From: a virus
Virus genome (UHGV): UHGV-0072595
Strand: one strand, 5' to 3'
Length of the DNA: 18,059 nucleotides
Position 1 is the stretch's first letter; every line of letters begins with the position of its first letter. A program made the position numbers and the translations under genes. Positions 4,399-15,845 of this stretch are shown piece by piece. Below the pieces are notes generated by a model. It saw only the letters and a list, made by a program, of their open reading frames with translations. It was not told the origin of the DNA and searched no databases.

Positions 4399-4725
4399 TC
4401 AAATAAGTGGTTTGCTGCCTAATTTCATTTTCTGGCGACCAACACAAGTCACCCCCATTTCACTGCGTGGCTTGCTGTACCATGTGCGCTGATTCTTGCG
4501 CTCAATACGTTGCAGGTTGCTTTCAATCTGTTCGTGGTATTCAGCCAGCACTGTAAGGTCTATTGGATTCAGTGCGCTTTCTACTCGTGATTTCGGTTTG
4601 CGATTCAGCGAGAGAATAGGGCGGTTAACTGGTTTTGCGCTTACCCCAACCAACAGGGGATTTGCTGCTTTCCATTGAGCCTGTTTCTCTGCGCGACGTT
4701 CGCGGCGGCGTGTTTGTGCATCCAT
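4399..4725 (-). CDS. N: Antiterminator N (lambda N-like; C-terminal residues differ slightly from my recollection of lambda N)
   Basis: Track ORF MDAQTRRRERRAEKQAQWKAANPLLVGVSAKPVNRPILSLNRKPKSRVESALNPIDLTVLAEYH... including the arginine-rich boxB-binding motif; downstream of nutL on the pL transcript. Confidence 0.9.
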   Translation of the reverse strand: MDAQTRRRERRAEKQAQWKAANPLLVGVSAKPVNRPILSLNRKPKSRVESALNPIDLTVLAEYHEQIESNLQRIERKNQRTWYSKPRSEMGVTCVGRQKMKLGSKPLI

Positions 4726-4914
4726 CTGGATTCTCCTGTCAGTTAGCTTTGGTGATTGGATGGCCGGCGCTGAACCCCGGCTTACTGGTTAGAGCGCCCG
4801 CACTACCAGTGACGCTGTCTTGAGGCGCAGATTGGTTACTGCTTGCCATGAGCGCTGTTTATACATTGGTCGAGCATCAGCCTGCTCATTCATCCAATCC
4901 CAAAGCCTTCTGCT

Positions 4915-4945
4915 TTGAATGCTGCCCTTCTTCAGGGCTTAATTT
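4915..4945 (-). promoter_or_regulatory. nutL (boxB hairpin GCCCTGAAGAAGGGC at 4915-4929 and boxA CGCTCTTA at 4938-4945, read on the minus strand)
   Basis: Exact lambda boxA and boxB motifs seen on the reverse complement. Confidence 0.85.
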
Positions 4946-4993
4946 TTAAGAGCGTCACCTTCATGGTGGTCAGTGCGTCCTGCTGATGTGCTC

Positions 4994-5056
4994 AGTATCA
5001 CCGCCAGTGGTATTTATGTCAACACCGCCAGAGATAATTTATCACCGCAGATGGTT
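4994..5056 (-). promoter_or_regulatory. pL promoter with operators OL1 (4996-5012), OL2 (5020-5036), OL3 (5040-5056); -10 GATACT (4994-4999) and -35 TTGACA (5017-5022) on the minus strand
   Basis: Three 17-bp TATCACCGC/CAACACCGC-type operator half-site pairs identical in form to lambda OL; promoter hexamers at 17-bp spacing. Confidence 0.85.
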
Positions 5057-5202
5057 ATCTGTATGTTTTTTATATGAATTTATTTTTTGCAGGGGGGGCA
5101 TTGTTTGGTAGGTGAGAGATCTGAATTGCTATGTTTAGTGAGTTGTATCTATTTATTTTTCAATAATACAATTGGTTATGTGTTTTGGGGGCGATCGTGA
5201 GG

Positions 5203-5229
5203 CAAAGAAAACCCGGCGCTGAGGCCGGG
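5203..5229 (-). terminator. Intrinsic terminator immediately after the rexB stop (CCCGGC/GCCGGG stem plus U-tract on the minus strand), tIMM-like
   Basis: Plus strand acccggcgctgaggccggg preceded by aaagaaa; on the minus strand hairpin then UUUUCUUU. Confidence 0.6.
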
Positions 5230-5664
5230 TTATTCTTGTTCTCTGGTCAAATTATATAGTTGGAAAACAAGGATGCATATATGAATGAACGATGCAGAGG
5301 CAATGCCGATGGCGATAGTGGGTATCATGTAGCCGCTTATGCTGGAAAGAAGCAATAACCCGCAGAAAAACAAAGCTCCAAGCTCAACAAAACTAAGGGC
5401 ATAGACAATAACTACCGATGTCATATACCCATACTCTCTAATCTTGGCCAGTCGGCGCGTTCTGCTTCCGATTAGAAACGTCAAGGCAGCAATCAGGATT
5501 GCAATCATGGTTCCTGCATATGATGACAATGTCGCCCCAAGACCATCTCTATGAGCTGAAAAAGAAACACCAGGAATGTAGTGGCGGAAAAGGAGATAGC
5601 AAATGCTTACGATAACGTAAGGAATTATTACTATGTAAACACCAGGCATGATTCTGTTCCGCAT
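5230..5664 (-). CDS. rexB: RexB (membrane component of the Rex abortive-infection/exclusion system, 144 aa)
   Basis: Track ORF; multi-pass hydrophobic protein of the right size immediately downstream of rexA as in lambda. Confidence 0.9.
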   Translation of the reverse strand: MRNRIMPGVYIVIIPYVIVSICYLLFRHYIPGVSFSAHRDGLGATLSSYAGTMIAILIAALTFLIGSRTRRLAKIREYGYMTSVVIVYALSFVELGALFFCGLLLLSSISGYMIPTIAIGIASASFIHICILVFQLYNLTREQE

Positions 5665-5679
5665 AATTACTCCTGATAA

Positions 5680-6519
5680 TTAATCCTTAACTTTGCCCAC
5701 CTGCCTTTTAAAACATTCCAGTATATCACTTTTCATTCTTGCGTAGCAATATGCCATCTCTTCAGCTATCTCAGCATTGGTGACCTTGTTCAGAGGCGCT
5801 GAGAGATGGCCTTTTTCTGATAGATAATGTTCTGTTAAAATATCTCCGGCCTCATCTTTTGCCCGCAGGCTAATGTCTGAAAATTGAGGTGACGGGTTAA
5901 AAATAATATCCTTGGCAACCTTTTTTATATCCCTTTTAAATTTTGGCTTAATGACTATATCCAATGAGTCAAAAAGCTCCCCTTCAATATCTGTTGCCCC
6001 TAAGACCTTTAATATATCGCCAAATACAGGTAGCTTGGCTTCTACCTTCACCGTTGTTCGGCCGATGAAATGCATATGCATAACATCGTCTTTGGTGGTT
6101 CCCCTCATCAGTGGCTCTATCTGAACGCGCTCTCCACTGCTTAATGACATTCCTTTCCCGATTAAAAAATCTGTCAGATCGGATGTGGTCGGCCCGAAAA
6201 CAGTTCTGGCAAAACCAATGGTGTCGCCTTCAACAAACAAAAAAGATGGGAATCCCAATGATTCGTCATCTGCGAGGCTGTTCTTAATATCTTCAACTGA
6301 AGCTTTAGAGCGATTTATCTTCTGAACCAGACTCTTGTCATTTGTTTTGGTAAAGAGAAAAGTTTTTCCATCGATTTTATGAATATACAAATAATTGGAG
6401 CCAACCTGCAGGTGATGATTATCAGCCAGCAGAGAATTAAGGAAAACAGACAGGTTTATTGAGCGCTTATCTTTCCCTTTATTTTTGCTGCGGTAAGTCG
6501 CATAAAAACCATTCTTCAT
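5680..6519 (-). CDS. rexA: RexA (sensor component of the Rex system, 279 aa)
   Basis: Track ORF MKNGFYATYRSKNKGKDKRSINLSVFLNSLLADNHHLQ...; matches lambda RexA as I recall it; cotranscribed with cI. Confidence 0.9.
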   Translation of the reverse strand: MKNGFYATYRSKNKGKDKRSINLSVFLNSLLADNHHLQVGSNYLYIHKIDGKTFLFTKTNDKSLVQKINRSKASVEDIKNSLADDESLGFPSFLFVEGDTIGFARTVFGPTTSDLTDFLIGKGMSLSSGERVQIEPLMRGTTKDDVMHMHFIGRTTVKVEAKLPVFGDILKVLGATDIEGELFDSLDIVIKPKFKRDIKKVAKDIIFNPSPQFSDISLRAKDEAGDILTEHYLSEKGHLSAPLNKVTNAEIAEEMAYCYARMKSDILECFKRQVGKVKD

Positions 6520-6631
6520 AATTCAATCCATTTACTATGTTATGTTCTGAGGGGAGTGAAAATTCCCCTAATTCGATGAAGATTCTTGCTCAATTGTTAT
6601 CAGCTATGCGCCGACCAGAACACCTTGCCGA

Positions 6632-7348
<717 letters not shown>

Positions 7349-7355
7349 TTAAATC

Positions 7356-7421
7356 TATCACCGCAAGGGATAAATATCTAACACCGTGCGTGTTGACTAT
7401 TTTACCTCTGGCGGTGATAAT
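7356..7421. promoter_or_regulatory. Right operator region: OR3 (7356-7372), OR2 (7379-7395), OR1 (7403-7419) with divergent pRM (leftward) and pR (-35 TTGACT 7393-7398, -10 GATAAT 7416-7421)
   Basis: Operator sequences TATCACCGCAAGGGATA, TAACACCGTGCGTGTTG, TACCTCTGGCGGTGATA read directly; these are the lambda OR sites. Confidence 0.9.
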
Positions 7422-7436
7422 GGTTGCATGTACTAA

Positions 7437-7646
<210 letters not shown>

Positions 7647-8077: not shown

Positions 8078-8224
8078 ATGACAAAACAACTCAGTCCTTA
8101 CCAGGACAAAATTCACAAACACATACTACGTGATCGCTTCCTGTCCAGCTTCAAGCAGCCTGGTCGATTCCGGGCTGAGTTGGAAAAAGTGAAGCTGATG
8201 CAGAAGGAGAAAGGTCATGAGTAA
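8078..8224 (+). CDS. Small basic hypothetical protein (48 aa) between cII and the O-like gene
   Basis: Hand translation [48 protein letters not shown]; AGGAG SD 6 nt upstream; stop overlaps the O-like start region. Confidence 0.4.
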
Positions 8225-9077
8225 TCTTGCAACCGTAACACATTTAAGGCCTTCACAACGGCCTGTGGAGCGTCGTGTGGCAGAAGTTGAAGATGGTTAT
8301 ACCCGTCTTGCAAATGCCCTGTATGAAGAGCTTATCGGCGCAGATTTAACGAAAAATCAGAGCAAGGTTGCCCACGCCATATGCCGTAAAACATACGGCT
8401 ACGGTAAAAAGATGGATCGCATCTCTGATAGTCAGTTAGCTCAAATTACCAGGCTGCCAAGACAGAAGGTAAACAAGGCCAAGAATGAGCTTATCGCGAT
8501 GAAGGTTATCCTTCGCGAAGGCCAGCAAATCGGGCCTAACAAGAACATCGAGGAATGGCAAATCGAAGGGTGTCACTACTCTGGTGATAATGTCACTGCA
8601 TTGGTGACAAAAAGTGTCACCAAAACGGTGACAGCGCTGTCACCAAAACAGGGACACACAAAAGAAACTATTACAAAAGAAAAAAGAAATAATAAAAACA
8701 CTATGTCCGAAAGTGTTCGGACGGAGTGTGAAAAATCACATGACCGTCACGAAGAAACCGACAAGGCATTCGAGGAAATATTCTGGTGTGCAGGCATGCG
8801 GAAAGCCGGGAAGAAAAACGCAGCTTCGGCATTCAGAACACAGTTCAGGGAATGGCGTAAAACTACCAGGGGGACGGCAAGCGAGTTTGCCACGATGCTG
8901 GCAGAAGACATCGCATGCAGGAATGGTAAGCAGTTCGGATTCGACAGGTTGTTACCATCGAGCTACCTGAACGGTCAACGCTGGAACGACGAAAAGCCAG
9001 AAACCATTCAACCACAATCCAAACCATCATCCGCAATCACCGTATCGAAAACTGGCTACGTGTTTTTCGACAGGTGA
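8217..9077 (+). CDS. Replication initiator, lambda O-like N-terminal iteron-binding domain with a divergent C-terminal domain (286 aa)
   Basis: Track ORF; N-terminus shares the O-family pattern DDGYxRL...ADLTKxQxKV...RKTYGxxKxMDRIxDSQL...GPNKNIxEW with lambda O; gene contains its own iteron/AT-rich origin. Confidence 0.85.
8582..8700. repeat. Replication origin inside the O-like gene: three to four iterons built on GGTGACA/TGTCACC inverted half-sites (about 8582-8650) followed by an A-rich region
   Basis: Direct reading: ctGGTGAtaaTGTCACtgca, ttGGTGACAaaaagTGTCACCaaaac, GGTGACAgcgcTGTCACCaaaac, then acaaaagaaactattacaaaagaaaaaagaaataataaaaac. Confidence 0.7.
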
Positions 9078-9080
9078 ACC

Positions 9081-9188
9081 ATGAAATCAAAAATCAAATC
9101 GCTACTGGTCGCTGGTTATAACCACGGCTGGTTAAGTATTTCGTTTGTCGATTTCTGGTTTAAAAATCTCAATCTGAGGGAATCATGA
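9081..9188 (+). CDS. Possible small coupled ORF (35 aa) between the O-like gene and the primase-helicase
   Basis: Hand translation MKSKIKSLLVAGYNHGWLSISFVDFWFKNLNLRES; start 4 nt after the O stop; stop overlaps the primase-helicase ATG (ATGA). Confidence 0.3.
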   Translation: MKSKIKSLLVAGYNHGWLSISFVDFWFKNLNLRES

Positions 9189-11065
9189 CGCCAAGTGAAC
9201 TTAGCGACCTGCTTTGGGCGCAGGTTGACAGGGTGGCTCCGCACCTGTTGCCAAACGGCAAGAAAGAGGGGCATGAGTGGGTTGCCGGTAACATCAACGG
9301 TGACAAGGGAAACAGCCTTAAGGTCAACCTTAGCGGCAAGAAAAAATGGGCTGATTTCGCTGAGGGAGACGGCGGTGACATGCTTGATTTGTGGATGGCA
9401 TGTCGTGGAATTAACCTGCATCAGGCTATGCAGGAAGCGAAAGCATTTCTCGGTATCAAGGATGACGATCACCATTTCGATGCCAGACGTGAGAAAAAAT
9501 TCTCCAGACCTGATCGCAAGAAAATCGCCCGCTACGTTACCAGAACAGAATCCCATCTTGAGTACCTGCAATCGCGTGGCATATCGCCAGAAATCGTAAA
9601 GCGCTACGAGGTTGTCAGCGGCAAGGTGTGGAATGGAGAGCGGGAACTGGATGCTCTGGTGATTCCGTACAAACGCGATGGTGAGTTGTTGCAGGTCAAG
9701 CGAATCAGCACTGAGCGCCCGGACGGGAAGAAAGTCATTATGGCAGAAGGTGATTGCGAACCTTGTCTGTTCGGATGGCAGGCTCTGGACGCTGGCGTGA
9801 GGGCGGTTGTACTTTGCGAAGGCGAAATTGATTGTATGAGCTATGCGCAATACGGCATCTCGGCGTTATCCGTACCGTTTGGTGGAGGGAAAGGCGCTAA
9901 GCAACAGTGGATTGAGTTTGAGTATCACAACCTCGACAGGTTTGAGGAAATATTCATCTCGATGGACGTTGATGATGTTGGTCGTGAAGCCGCAAGGGAA
10001 ATCGCAAGCCGACTCGGTGAACATCGTTGCCGTCTTGTTACTCTGCCGTACAAAGACATCAACGAATGCCTGATGAACGGTGTTACCGAGGATGCAATCT
10101 GGCAGTACATCGGCACGGCATCCTACTTTGATCCTGAAGAACTCTACAGCGCGCGAGAGTTTTACCAGGACACTATCAACGCTTTCTACGGCAAGCAGCA
10201 GTATCTGTTTAATCCACCGTGGGAATCTCTGGCAGATAAATTCCAGTTCCGTGAGGCCGAGTTGACGCTGGTCAATGGTGTGAACGGTCACGGAAAAACG
10301 GAGGTTGTCGGGCATATGGCACTTGAGGCAATGCGTCAGGGTGTGAAGACGTGCATCGCGTCACTTGAGCTGAAGCCTGGTATTCTCCTTAAGCGCCTTA
10401 CCCGTCAGGCAACGTGCTGCAAGATGCCGCCAGTGCTGGAAATTGACTCTGCATTTAAATTTTATGACGAAAGACTTTGGGTGTTTGGCCTGACCGGAAC
10501 GGCGAAAGCCGACAGGCTGATCGAAATATTCGACTACGCTCGCCGCCGATACGGGATCCAGTTATTCATCATCGACAGCCTGATGAAATGTGGCATAGGC
10601 GACGATGACTATAACGGGCAGAAGGCGTTTGTTGACTCGATTTGCGACTTCAAAAACAAAACAAACTCCCACGTCATTCTCGTTACTCACTCGCGAAAAG
10701 GAGACAGCGAAGAAAAACCAACCGGGAAAATGGACGTAAAAGGCTCTGGAGCGATAACAGACCTGACAGACAACCTTTTCATCATCTGGCGTAACAAGGC
10801 TCGCGAGAGAGCGTTACAGAGAGTTCAGAGTGGTGAAAAGATGTCAGAGAAGGACGAACAGGTACTGGCGTCTCCGGCATCTGTTTTGATGCTTGAAAAA
10901 CAACGAAACGGCGAAGGTTGGGAAGGTGGTGTCCCGTTGTTCCTTGACGAGCAATCGCACCAGTTCCTGCAACTTGAATCAGGATCGCCATATAGCTACA
11001 TCGCCAATATGCCGAAATCGGAATATGACGAGGCGTGGCGACAGGAAAACGTGACGGAGTATTAA
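9185..11065 (+). CDS. Bifunctional DNA primase-helicase (N-terminal primase/Toprim-like region, C-terminal DnaB/RecA-like helicase), replaces lambda P (626 aa)
   Basis: Track ORF; acidic Toprim-like motifs (CEGEIDCMS, MDVDDVGRE), Walker A NGVNGHGKTE and Walker B-like LFIIDSLMK in the C-terminal half. Confidence 0.8.
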   Translation: MTPSELSDLLWAQVDRVAPHLLPNGKKEGHEWVAGNINGDKGNSLKVNLSGKKKWADFAEGDGGDMLDLWMACRGINLHQAMQEAKAFLGIKDDDHHFDARREKKFSRPDRKKIARYVTRTESHLEYLQSRGISPEIVKRYEVVSGKVWNGERELDALVIPYKRDGELLQVKRISTERPDGKKVIMAEGDCEPCLFGWQALDAGVRAVVLCEGEIDCMSYAQYGISALSVPFGGGKGAKQQWIEFEYHNLDRFEEIFISMDVDDVGREAAREIASRLGEHRCRLVTLPYKDINECLMNGVTEDAIWQYIGTASYFDPEELYSAREFYQDTINAFYGKQQYLFNPPWESLADKFQFREAELTLVNGVNGHGKTEVVGHMALEAMRQGVKTCIASLELKPGILLKRLTRQATCCKMPPVLEIDSAFKFYDERLWVFGLTGTAKADRLIEIFDYARRRYGIQLFIIDSLMKCGIGDDDYNGQKAFVDSICDFKNKTNSHVILVTHSRKGDSEEKPTGKMDVKGSGAITDLTDNLFIIWRNKARERALQRVQSGEKMSEKDEQVLASPASVLMLEKQRNGEGWEGGVPLFLDEQSHQFLQLESGSPYSYIANMPKSEYDEAWRQENVTEY

Positions 11066-11094: not shown

Positions 11095-11126
11095 AGGCCT
11101 GCTGGTAATCGCAGGCCTTTTTATTT
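11095..11126 (+). terminator. Intrinsic terminator after the replication genes (8-bp perfect stem CAGGCCTGC/GCAGGCCT plus U-tract), tR2-like position
   Basis: Direct reading caggcctgctggtaatcgcaggcctttttattt 30 nt after the primase-helicase stop. Confidence 0.65.
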
Positions 11127-11141
11127 GGGGGAGAGTAAATC

Positions 11142-11348
11142 GTGGTTGAGTTTATGCTCGTCGCACTCAAATGCGTTGGCGTTGGATGGATTCTTCTGAC
11201 GTTTTTTATTGTTCTGCATAGCTACATTCGCCTTGTGAATGACGGTAAAGATCCATGGTATACGTTGTTTGGCGCTGCATTTGTCTGGGTGATTATCGGT
11301 GTTATGCCTGTCGCTGTAGCAAAAATGGCGTGGCGTTTTGTGAGTTGA
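11142..11348 (+). CDS. Small two-helix membrane protein (68 aa from GTG; 64 aa if ATG 11154)
   Basis: Track ORF; GGGGGAGAG SD upstream of the GTG; two hydrophobic segments (GVGWILLTFFIVL and LFGAAFVWVIIGVMPVAV) separated by a short polar loop. Confidence 0.55.
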   Translation: MVEFMLVALKCVGVGWILLTFFIVLHSYIRLVNDGKDPWYTLFGAAFVWVIIGVMPVAVAKMAWRFVS

Positions 11349-15689: not shown

Positions 15690-15764
15690 GGGTCAGTCGT
15701 ATAAAGGTCATTACGGAAGGCTGTTAACCTTCTTATCGTGGTTCGAGTCCACGCTGTCCCGCCA
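15690..15764 (+). tRNA. tRNA-Asn(GUU)-like gene with encoded CCA; atypical (one U-U mismatch in the acceptor stem, weak D-stem)
   Basis: Manual fold: acceptor GGGTCAG/CTGTCCC, anticodon stem GAAGG/CCTTC with loop CTGTTAA, T-arm CGTGG-TTCGAGT-CCACG, discriminator G, CCA. Confidence 0.5.
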
Positions 15765-15769
15765 AATAT

Positions 15770-15845
15770 GCTGGTTTAGCTCCAATGGTAGAGCAGTCGC
15801 CTTGTAAGCGAATGGGTAGCGGTTCAAGTCCGTTAACCAGCACCA
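15770..15845 (+). tRNA. tRNA-Thr(UGU) gene with encoded CCA
   Basis: Manual fold: perfect 7-bp acceptor GCTGGTT/AACCAGC, D-arm GCTC-CAATGGTA-GAGC, anticodon loop CTTGTAA, T-arm AGCGG-TTCAAGT-CCGTT, discriminator A, CCA. Confidence 0.65.

Follow-up and report, generated by a model that had tools for sequence, protein, structure and literature searches.

A probable replication module with a T7 gp4/Twinkle-type primase-helicase and a conserved 35-codon gene in a lambdoid Escherichia coli prophage

The window analysed here, the whole 18,059-nt stretch of virus genome UHGV-0072595, spans recombination genes to lysis genes and encodes no polymerase. Within it, the ORF list and the sequence place three consecutive ORFs: an O-like ORF at 8217-9077, an ATG-initiated 35-codon ORF at 9081-9188 and an ATG-initiated 626-codon ORF at 9185-11065. 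As the earlier note had described, the 35-aa ORF sits between the O-like and 626-aa genes and is joined to the latter by an ATGA overlap, in which the TGA stop of the small ORF (9186-9188) lies over the ATG start of the large one (9185-9187); the Toprim-like acidic motifs and Walker A/B motifs that it had reported for the 626-aa protein downstream of the O-like gene can likewise all be located in the sequence. A Shine-Dalgarno-like AGGTGA at 9072-9077, which includes the O stop codon, precedes the 35-codon ORF, and a Shine-Dalgarno-like GAGGG at 9176-9180 precedes the 626-codon ORF. Because domain or PHROG matches are found for all three products, the arrangement cannot be a chance pattern of ORFs. 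The features of the locus are as follows.

8217-9077, + strand: origin-binding initiator gene, 286 aa (Pfam Phage_rep_O, NCBIfam phage_O_Nterm)
8571-8656, no strand: four 19-bp palindromic iterons, TGTCAC-N7-GGTGACA, inside the initiator gene (repeat search); presumed origin binding sites
8657-8729, no strand: A-rich tract (8657-8700), then a 14-nt inverted repeat (8698-8729) (sequence, repeat families D3 and I3); presumed DNA-unwinding element
9036-9074, + strand: C-terminal tail of the initiator, 13 residues, candidate docking peptide (motif comparison among relatives)
9081-9188, + strand: 35-codon gene, product MKSKIKSLLVAGYNHGWLSISFVDFWFKNLNLRES, equivalent to ES18 gp60 and PHROG 21848 (PHROG, ES18 annotation)
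9185-11065, + strand: bifunctional primase-helicase gene, T7 gp4/Twinkle type, 626 aa (PHROG 239, T7 gp4 similarity)
9185-9484, + strand: zinc-binding-like domain without zinc ligands, aa 1-100 (NCBIfam dnaG similarity)
9809-10072, + strand: Toprim catalytic core, aa 209-296, with E212, D261, D263 and D291 (Pfam Toprim_2)
10247-10966, + strand: RecA-like SF4 helicase domain, aa 355-594 (Pfam AAA_25 and DnaB_C)
11095-11127, + strand: intrinsic-terminator-like hairpin, 8-bp stem with 6 G-C pairs, then TTTTTATTT (terminator scan)

The hairpin lies about 30 nt 3' of the primase-helicase stop codon, and phage g341c has an annotated terminator in the corresponding stretch. Rfam families above threshold across the window are limited to two tRNAs, with none near the replication module. 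Two antisense ORFs in the primase-helicase gene (9116-9850, 244 aa; 9866-10315, 149 aa) were dismissed as shadow ORFs, because the longest antisense stop-free run in this gene ranges so widely among relatives, from 38 to 208 codons.

By profile, sequence and predicted fold, the 626-aa protein is a primase-helicase of the T7 gp4/Twinkle type. It matches PHROG 239, 'DNA primase/helicase', at 4e-171; phmmer relates it to T7 gp4 (8e-23) and Twinkle (1e-13); a Foldseek search with its AlphaFold model returns T7 gp4 (7e-22), with Twinkle and Aquifex DnaG as well; and many phages carry this gene under the annotation 'DNA primase/helicase'. T7 gp4 is the best match by both sequence and fold, yet the identity is only ~21-22%. 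The order of domains is that of T7 gp4 and mitochondrial Twinkle, a zinc-binding-like domain followed by a Toprim RNA-polymerase, a linker and an SF4 RecA-like helicase. Pfam Toprim_2 matches residues 209-296 with an E-value of 3e-12, over the Pfam cut-off, and E212, D261, D263 and D291 align with T7 gp4 E157, D207, D209 and D237. The helicase part (residues 355-594) scores 27.9 bits against AAA_25, barely over the cut-off of 27, and 23.9 bits against DnaB_C, under the cut-off of 27. Its Walker A motif reads G-H-G-K371-T and its Walker B motif I-I-D464-S, and the phmmer alignment sets K371, E395, D464 and H502 against T7 gp4 K318, E343, D424 and H465. All of these aligned Toprim and helicase residues are invariant among 16 relatives of 69-94% identity, and R574, in an invariant EKQRNG motif, is the probable arginine finger and counterpart of T7 R522. 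The AlphaFold model has a mean pLDDT of 65.5; the Toprim region reaches 80-92, and the helicase region, lower than the primase core, is of moderate confidence. Thus the assignment of primase and helicase domains in the earlier note is borne out by a domain search, through Toprim_2, PHROG 239, NCBIfam dnaG and the matches to T7 gp4. A T7 4B-like short form from an internal start was considered and rejected, M66 being Leu in most relatives.

The N-terminal domain is less straightforward. NCBIfam dnaG TIGR01391 places aa 26-143 of the protein on model positions 27-155, and a profile of the 16 relatives aligns 'CFGCGvgGD' of Aquifex DnaG (2au3) with 'sDFaegekGD', a weak match at E 0.76, in which D/S and E stand at the positions of the DnaG CxxC pair; a single-sequence PDB search with aa 1-150 gave no match. 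Residues 1-100 hold a single Cys (C73), and no Cys/His set is conserved there among relatives. T7 gp4, in contrast, has four zinc-binding cysteines and needs its zinc-binding domain for template recognition and de novo priming, and the T7 56-kDa form without that domain cannot prime de novo. The missing Cys4 domain does not exclude membership of the T7 gp4 type, because metazoan Twinkle lacks it also. Metazoan Twinkle, having lost its zinc ligands, is not a primase, and human Twinkle has lost both zinc ligands and priming activity. On this precedent the 626-aa protein might be a replicative helicase whose degenerate zinc finger cannot start primers, so that host DnaG or another route would be needed, and the lack of Cys/His zinc ligands in any relative, with D/S and E at the DnaG CxxC positions, is what such a helicase would look like. 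However, the Toprim acidic residues are invariant across relatives (metazoan Twinkle has lost them), and many positions of the N-terminal domain are invariant too, a good conservation that suggests a retained function. In addition, Pfam finds no DnaB-type N-terminal domain, the usual recruiter of E. coli DnaG, in the protein, only the Toprim and ATPase core. We therefore regard a non-priming helicase as quite unlikely, and de novo primase activity as likely, if not assured because the zinc-finger-like domain lacks zinc ligands.

The gene upstream is a composite. Pfam Phage_rep_O matches initiator aa 20-114 at 1e-37 and NCBIfam phage_O_Nterm matches as well, while in a BLASTP comparison aa 1-157 are 49% identical to lambda O and similarity ends there; the divergence of the C-terminus from lambda O, which had been claimed earlier, is therefore confirmed. 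Residues 157-286 are spanned by a separate family, PHROG 33384, and match no Pfam family. By these comparisons the N-terminal part (aa 1-157), with its winged-helix origin-binding domain, is lambda-O-type and the C-terminal part (~aa 160-286) is unrelated to that of lambda O, which binds P. The gene contains four iteron copies, at 8571, 8591, 8615 and 8638 (repeat families D1 and D2), in the same layout as the four iterons annotated in lambda O and the rep_origin in ES18 gene 59; we presume that these are the binding sites of the origin and that the A-rich tract and inverted repeat beside them form its DNA-unwinding element. An AlphaFold model of the C-terminal fragment has a mean pLDDT of 56, with only a three-helix bundle (fragment aa 20-78) moderately confident and the tail modelled after a low-confidence linker. 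A search with the 130-aa C-terminus returned mostly partial, near-identical proteins and hence a shallow alignment.

In its position the locus corresponds to lambda O-P and P22 gene 18-gene 12, which occupy the same slot of the early right operon, between cro and cII on one side and the nin genes on the other, and which likewise carry the origin inside an initiator gene whose C-terminus is specific for the downstream partner. It differs from both in its extra 35-codon gene and in the partner itself. Lambda P, a loader, works by capturing host DnaB, and the primase-helicase bears no similarity to it: the best BLASTP E-value against lambda P is 0.79, and Pfam, NCBIfam and PHROG searches of the 626-aa protein find no loader family of the lambda P or DnaC/IstB type. 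The earlier proposal that a primase-helicase stands in place of lambda P thus holds, with the gene at the P position and without similarity to P. P22 gp12 is a DnaB-type helicase without primase, whereas the T7-type protein of this locus is a fusion of helicase and primase and has been called 'nonhomologous' to the DnaB-like helicases of P22-type modules (PMC10307801). There are differences from the T7 system too, in that the protein has no partner phage polymerase and would act at an iteron origin served by an initiator of its own. T7 itself initiates from transcripts at its primary origin.

This kind of module is already known, with annotations in ES18, in Shiga-toxin phages and in many others that go back to 2005, and only the 35-aa micro-protein is left as a lead. 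Sequenced phages and prophages match the window at 98-100% identity. The module kind was first annotated in Salmonella phage ES18, where genes 59 (O-like, with the origin), 60 (35 aa) and 61 have the same order, sizes and coupling, and where the GenBank note on gene 61 reads 'putative primase/helicase; similar to phage T7 gene 4'. Phages epsilon34, g341c, SEN22, Sf101 and mEp043 carry these three genes too. Over the 3.3-kb region the DNA identity is 88% to ES18 and 98-99% to Sf101 and mEp043, and for the primase-helicase protein it is 93.6% and 99%, respectively. Nothing substantial sets the modules of these phages apart from that of the window; the N-terminal half of the initiator and the iterons differ among some of them, a sign of mosaic exchange, and in epsilon34 and g341c the nucleotide match begins only at window position 8644. 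The 'O2/P2' genes of Stx phages 24B and Min27 belong to the Eru5 replication type of Shiga-toxin phages, with Stx2a_F403 as representative, a type defined in PMC8951638 and found in Stx2a phages of outbreak strains; in 24B the equivalent gene is the 'P' gene, for which the 24B paper describes TOPRIM_primase and GP4d_helicase domains. These Stx phages (24B/Min27) share the initiator C-terminal part, the small ORF (71-100% identical) and the primase-helicase (~94-97%), but their initiators have an HTH_36 N-terminus instead of the Phage_rep_O of the window. The primase-helicase genes of 24B, Min27 and F403 also carry an intein after the Walker A lysine, placed at residues 372-702 in the 24B paper and measured here as ~342 extra residues (968 aa in P0012 vs 626), whereas the window copy has none.

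The same exchange of initiator N-termini bears on the proposal, made in the earlier note, that the divergent C-terminus contacts the primase-helicase. If it does, co-inheritance of the two on unrelated DNA-binding N-termini is to be expected, and this is what we see. The same C-terminal 127-130 aa (93-100% identical) occur on either a Phage_rep_O or an unrelated HTH_36 N-terminus, and genomes of other genera retain the C-terminal domain even when no similarity can be recognised in the initiator N-terminus. The primase-helicase gene follows this domain in 156 of 157 viral loci, the remaining locus stopping too early to judge. The final tail is more mobile still: the motif TVSKxG[YL]VF ends at least four different initiator bodies adjoining close relatives of the primase-helicase, being retained even where the whole initiator body differs, and a second tail type, xEVF[ILV]...A[IL], accompanies a clade of ~60% identity. 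Co-inheritance thus supports the C-terminus as the partner-specific part, and the contact itself, with the tail as the docking element for the primase-helicase, is what we infer from it; as the argument comes from adjacent genes, linkage alone could explain part of the pattern.

A quite different possibility is that the novel C-terminus of the initiator recruits host DnaB, and that the Toprim-ATPase protein serves elsewhere, in late replication, recombination-dependent restart, or defence or counter-defence. Toprim and P-loop ATPase combinations are indeed known from defence proteins, and PADLOC gives weak partial matches to a DRT DnaG-like domain (7e-11, aa 157-299) and to mad8 (8e-5). These matches are limited to single generic domains, however, and a defence-system identity was rejected on that ground: PADLOC yields no whole-protein match to a defence model of the OLD/Gabija/PARIS Toprim-ATPase type, and the domain order, Toprim first, is the reverse of the ATPase-first order of that type. 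The order and every motif fit T7 gp4 rather than OLD-type nucleases. Moreover, all relatives have the gene at the position of P or gene 12, where it is coupled to the initiator gene and co-inherited with the C-terminus and tail of the initiator, and the window holds no other helicase or loader gene. Recruitment of host DnaB by the initiator is accordingly the least probable of the readings considered here, and we give it very little credence; a role for the 626-aa protein in initiating replication of the phage is the reading that we retain.

The 35-codon gene travels with this protein. A comparison of its product with PHROG gives family 21848 (4e-26, over 34 of 35 positions), and ES18 has its annotated gene 60 in the corresponding position, between the initiator and primase-helicase genes. 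Among 28 distinct sequences listed, 27 are intact (the window and loci L084-L122, from a range of Enterobacterales), and all 27 have 35 codons and an ATG start; the one left out is L119, a frameshifted 27-codon copy from Arsenophonus. The gene is present in 39 phage records, although the RefSeq/PGAP annotation of several records, including an identical E. coli prophage, omits it. Variation is greatest at third codon positions, dN/dS is 0.22 at a dS of ~1.4, the other two frames hold stop codons, and the GYNHG and FVxxWF motifs of the product are conserved across genera. The suggestion that the small upstream ORF is a genuine gene is well supported by its fixed length, its dN/dS and its PHROG family, and by these measures it is a real, conserved and translationally coupled gene.

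It could still be argued that the ORF is only a spacer for translational coupling, or acts as RNA, its peptide having no function. The Shine-Dalgarno sequence of the small ORF contains the initiator stop codon, and the Shine-Dalgarno sequence and start of the primase-helicase gene lie inside its last codons; the window RNA at 9050-9215 folds better than shuffled sequences (z = -3.2); and the ORF is missing from L095, L097 and L110 and from relatives in Pseudomonas and Vibrio, in which one large gene directly overlaps the other. But a mere spacer would not need a fixed 35 codons, a low dN/dS or conserved GYNHG and FVxxWF motifs, and a conserved RNA structure was rejected, since across 23 relatives RNAalifold finds a consensus of only -0.6 kcal/mol, with 3 pairs and no compensatory change. 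We consider a peptide without function unlikely, if somewhat less so than a primase-helicase that cannot prime. A frameshift fusion of the 35-codon ORF with the primase-helicase was also rejected: the junction varies among relatives (ATGA, TGATGA, TAATGA, TGAATTATG), so there is no conserved slippery arrangement.

A functional 35-aa protein is most likely accessory to the primase-helicase and not to the initiator, to judge by the company that it keeps: the gene stays with the primase-helicase when the initiator changes, in L100, L103, L105 and phage SaltyDalty. Close relatives do without the gene, so it is not strictly required; the primase-helicases of L095, L097 and L110 are 91-96% identical to those of carriers. 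The protein could be a small subunit, a mini-loader or adaptor that helps to place the ring on the origin DNA once the initiator has opened it; alternatively, it could be an inhibitor that diverts parts of the host replisome to the phage. A bolder reading, and one that we offer only tentatively, joins the two mobile elements of the locus, with the tail (...G-Y-V-F...) as a portable docking peptide for unrelated origin-binding proteins and the 35-aa protein as a dedicated small subunit of the primase-helicase.

A general pathway can be proposed. The initiator would bind the iterons and open the A-rich tract, and its C-terminal part, probably through a flexible tail ending in GYVFF, would recruit the phage's own ring helicase, which would load itself as T7 gp4 does. 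A P- or DnaC-type loader, host DnaB and the chaperone-driven release step would then all be unneeded; primers would come from the Toprim domain, for host DNA polymerase III to extend. Overall, we believe it probable that the locus is the replication module of a lambdoid (P22-like) E. coli prophage, and that an initiator, a self-loading primase-helicase and an accessory 35-aa protein together account for it, a reading with which earlier annotation and literature agree. On this reading the module would be independent of host DnaB, DnaG, DnaC and DnaK/J/GrpE; no experiment on it was found in the searchable literature.

Modules of this kind are not confined to a few phages. Of 5,426 complete E. 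coli genomes, 2,089 contain matches to a 3.3-kb query that runs from cII to just past the primase-helicase gene, though in only 167 is at least 80% of the query covered at one place. The replication module sets the host functions that a temperate phage needs, and probably also which defences sense it; the lambda O-P origin complex with DnaB, for example, is required for OLD toxicity (bioRxiv 10.64898/2026.07.10.737580). A module equipped with a helicase and a primase of its own would be expected to do without DnaB, DnaC, DnaG and the DnaK chaperones. In this context, the practical value of the module lies not in discovery but in providing a well-defined and easily cloned test case.

The replication module of this prophage is real and already known, having been annotated since 2005 and repeatedly described afterwards. 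In the record of Salmonella phage ES18, its authors annotated gene 59 as a lambda gpO-like gene that contains the origin, gene 60 (108 bp) as of unknown function and gene 61 as a 'putative primase/helicase; similar to phage T7 gene 4'. The same reading recurs in later work: ES18-type replication genes were noted for epsilon34, the 'P' of phage 24B was described as TOPRIM_primase plus GP4d_helicase broken by an intein (PMC3430580), and the Stx-phage typing scheme names the module Eru5, with Stx2a_F403 (H12 among our nucleotide matches to the module) as its representative (PMC8951638). The list of ORFs and the sequence itself both show the three ORFs that the earlier note had described, ATGA coupling included, as three successive plus-strand genes followed by a hairpin in the position of tR2 in lambda:

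8217-9077, + strand, initiator ORF, 286 aa
9081-9188, + strand, micro-ORF, 35 aa, ATG start
9185-11065, + strand, primase-helicase ORF, 626 aa, ATG start
11095-11127, strong intrinsic-terminator-like hairpin, ~30 nt past the primase-helicase stop

The initiator stop TGA (9075-9077) lies within a Shine-Dalgarno-like AGGTGA upstream of the micro-ORF, GAGGG at 9176-9180 within the micro-ORF precedes the primase-helicase start, and that start overlaps the end of the micro-ORF as ATGA. Two further small ORFs flank the module. One of 68 aa (11142-11348), downstream of the hairpin, matches PHROG 1165, with no assigned function; the other, of 48 aa (8078-8224), separates cII from the initiator gene, overlaps the initiator start, and matches DUF2740, with similarity to HK97 gene 53. 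PHROG 1913, and hence RefSeq, labels the latter 'tail protein'. For an ORF of the early right operon this name is implausible; it is probably an annotation error passed on from record to record.

Across the 3.3-kb region, prophages of E. coli chromosomes such as that of strain KE40 match the window at 100% identity, phages Sf101, mEp043 and vB_EcoP-720R6 at 98-99%, and Salmonella phages ES18, epsilon34, g341c and SEN22 at 88-92%. Of 5,426 complete E. coli genomes, 2,089 have matches, a count that overstates whole-module carriage because the 3.3-kb query takes in cII and the N-terminal half of O; in 167 genomes one place covers 80% or more of it. In KE40 the setting is a lambdoid early region, running from lambda-type cI, rexA, rexB and N through cro, cII, the replication genes, nin genes and Q to two tRNAs and the lysis genes. 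By RefSeq annotation of an identical prophage, the immunity region of the window (4399-7646) is lambda's own, with a cI-like LexA-family repressor, rexA, rexB, N and cro; here it is joined to non-lambda replication genes and P22-like nin genes. Genes for tRNA-Asn and tRNA-Thr lie at 15690-15845, just downstream of Q.

The initiator matches Phage_rep_O (1e-37) and shares 49% identity with lambda O across aa 1-157, past which it has no likeness to lambda O, so that its C-terminus is divergent, as had been claimed. Its gene holds an origin laid out like those annotated in lambda and ES18:

8571-8656, four 19-bp palindromic iterons, TGTCAC-N7-GGTGACA (repeat search)
8657-8700, A-rich tract
8698-8729, inverted repeat

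The 626-aa protein, which takes the place of lambda P, is not similar to it in sequence, and domain searches bear out its reading as a primase-helicase. Toprim_2 is found at aa 209-296 (Pfam, 3e-12), aa 355-594 match families of P-loop and DnaB_C type (Pfam, with DnaB_C under its cut-off), and aa 26-143 align with positions 27-155 of the NCBIfam dnaG model, while PHROG 239, 'DNA primase/helicase', matches at full length (4e-171). Among solved structures, T7 gp4 is the best sequence match (8e-23, aa 192-539), then Twinkle (1e-13). Structure searches agree: although the AlphaFold model has a mean pLDDT of 65.5, its primase core reaches 80-92, and Foldseek returns T7 gp4 (7e-22), then Twinkle, and Aquifex DnaG too. 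The catalytic residues aligned below are unchanged in 16 of 16 relatives (69-94% identity), and R574, in an invariant EKQRNG motif, is inferred to be the counterpart of the T7 arginine finger. A PADLOC search gave no support for a defense-system reading of the protein.

Residues of the primase-helicase and their counterparts in T7 gp4 (printed alignment)
E212: E157, Toprim acidic residue
D261 and D263: D207 and D209, Toprim acidic residues
D291: D237, Toprim acidic residue
K371: K318, Walker A
E395: E343, catalytic Glu
D464: D424, Walker B
H502: H465, motif H3

The helicase assignment is thus firm and the primase catalytic core intact. Residues 1-100 have the look of a DnaG/T7 zinc-binding domain but only one cysteine, no conserved Cys/His set is found there in near or distant relatives, and a profile of the 16 relatives places Aquifex DnaG 'CFGCG..GD' opposite 'sDFaeg.kGD' only weakly (E 0.76). 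Because this zinc finger is degenerate, the main alternative is that a host enzyme is still required for priming; de novo priming by the phage protein is likely, though less firm than the helicase assignment. At the other end, aa 600-626 (window 10982-11062; …YIANMPKSEYDEAWRQENVTEY) form a conserved, acidic and aromatic tail of low model confidence with an aromatic last residue. It recalls the polymerase-binding tail of T7 gp4 and, by that analogy, could contact the host replisome.

Some relatives carry an insertion of ~342 aa right behind the Walker A lysine (GHGK / ACPL…SLLGDG…ATHN / TEVVGH): a Cronobacter malonaticus protein (P0012, 968 aa), the related loci L112 and L113 from 3501 onward, in both of which the frame stops inside it, and Stx phages 24B, Min27 and F403 (H81, H82, H88). 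The insertion is an intein whose core resembles a homing endonuclease; it begins with Ala, is followed by Thr and has already been reported for phage 24B (PMC3430580). Its interruption of the gene explains why Min27 'P' and 'primase' are annotated as two genes. The window protein is without it.

The earlier note had further proposed that the initiator C-terminus contacts the primase-helicase. Stx-phage nucleotide matches start at query 694 (window 8693, initiator residue ~159), just past the origin, and the primase-helicase lies downstream in 156 of 157 viral loci holding the initiator C-terminal domain, the remaining one stopping too early to judge. Their 54 distinct initiators fall into two classes, one of 286 aa with the window's Phage_rep_O N-terminus and one of 243-272 aa with an unrelated HTH_36 N-terminus, and all 54 share the final 127-130 residues of the window initiator at 93-100% identity. 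In other genera (primase-helicase 59-92% identical) this domain can still be recognized in loci whose initiator N-terminus cannot (L104, L106-L109, L111, L121), and the last dozen residues are retained even with an entirely different initiator body. Indeed, a tail of the form …TVSKxG[YL]VF… goes with primase-helicases that share 66% identity or more with that of the window (e.g. L092, L100, L105, L122), and …xEVF[ILV]…A[IL]… with the ~60% clade, phage SaltyDalty included. In a low-confidence AlphaFold model, the C-terminal fragment is a three-helix bundle leading through an unconfident stretch with a conserved YLNGxRW to the tail. The pattern, one of co-inheritance of adjacent genes, agrees with a C-terminus that is specific for its partner and docks through its tail. 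The HTH_36-type initiators (L005, L008, L040, L051 and L074 among others; 243-272 aa) differ in length by steps of 7-8 aa because the number of 'GGAGAAR'-like repeats in them ranges from 1 to 5; presumably 21-bp iterons within the gene vary in copy number.

The coupled 35-aa ORF is likewise upheld. The comparison took in 28 distinct sequences, the window's own and others from Escherichia, Citrobacter, Pantoea, Erwinia, Serratia, Rahnella, Xenorhabdus, Morganella, Providencia and Arsenophonus; 27 start at ATG and run for exactly 35 codons, and the other is a frameshifted 27-codon copy in an Arsenophonus endosymbiont (L119). The consensus is MKs.iK.lLiaGYNhGlls..FV.ywF.kl.LR.., dN is 0.32 and dS 1.42 (ratio 0.22, 184 pairs), differences at codon positions 1/2/3 are 0.37, 0.23 and 0.52, and both other frames contain stop codons. 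The product matches PHROG 21848 and, by tblastn, occurs in 39 records of phages, every one enterobacterial: Salmonella, Escherichia, Shigella and Stx-converting phages and one of Klebsiella. The primase-helicase is also present in 30 of the 30 records listed; PGAP and RefSeq annotation often miss it. The RNA of window 9050-9215 folds at -47 kcal/mol, stabler than shuffled controls (z = -3.2), with both ribosome-binding regions paired with distant segments; this fold is not kept in the 23 relatives compared, and no conserved RNA structure accounts for the conservation of the ORF.

The micro-ORF is kept with the primase-helicase despite a different initiator in L100, L103, L105 and SaltyDalty. 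L095, L097 and L110 lack it; their primase-helicases share 91-96% identity with those of micro-ORF-bearing neighbors. The relatives in Pseudomonas and Vibrio lack it too, and there the initiator and primase-helicase genes directly overlap each other. Natural losses are seen in L095 vs L096 (Xenorhabdus) and L110 vs L117 (Providencia). In L110 the initiator stop context TACTGAGG directly joins the primase-helicase ribosome-binding site, which looks like a deletion between two TGAGG ribosome-binding sites, and the primase-helicase is still 96.5% identical to that of L117. Given its 35-codon constancy, dN/dS and distribution, the product is a real small protein that is under selection, confined to one clade and dispensable, and whose partner, if any, would be the primase-helicase or a host factor and not the initiator body.

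Taken together, the observations of the earlier note are confirmed and its interpretation is supported. To the domain identities, intact catalytic residues, origin architecture, translational coupling signals and co-inheritance pattern established for the module, in a window with no other helicase or loader gene, a proposed pathway can be added. The initiator would form a complex on the iterons and open the A-rich tract, and its C-terminus would recruit the phage ring helicase, self-loading like T7 gp4. The Toprim domain would make primers for host polymerase III to extend. As the phage helicase would load itself and the Toprim domain would prime, host DnaB, DnaC and DnaG and the DnaK system would not be required.
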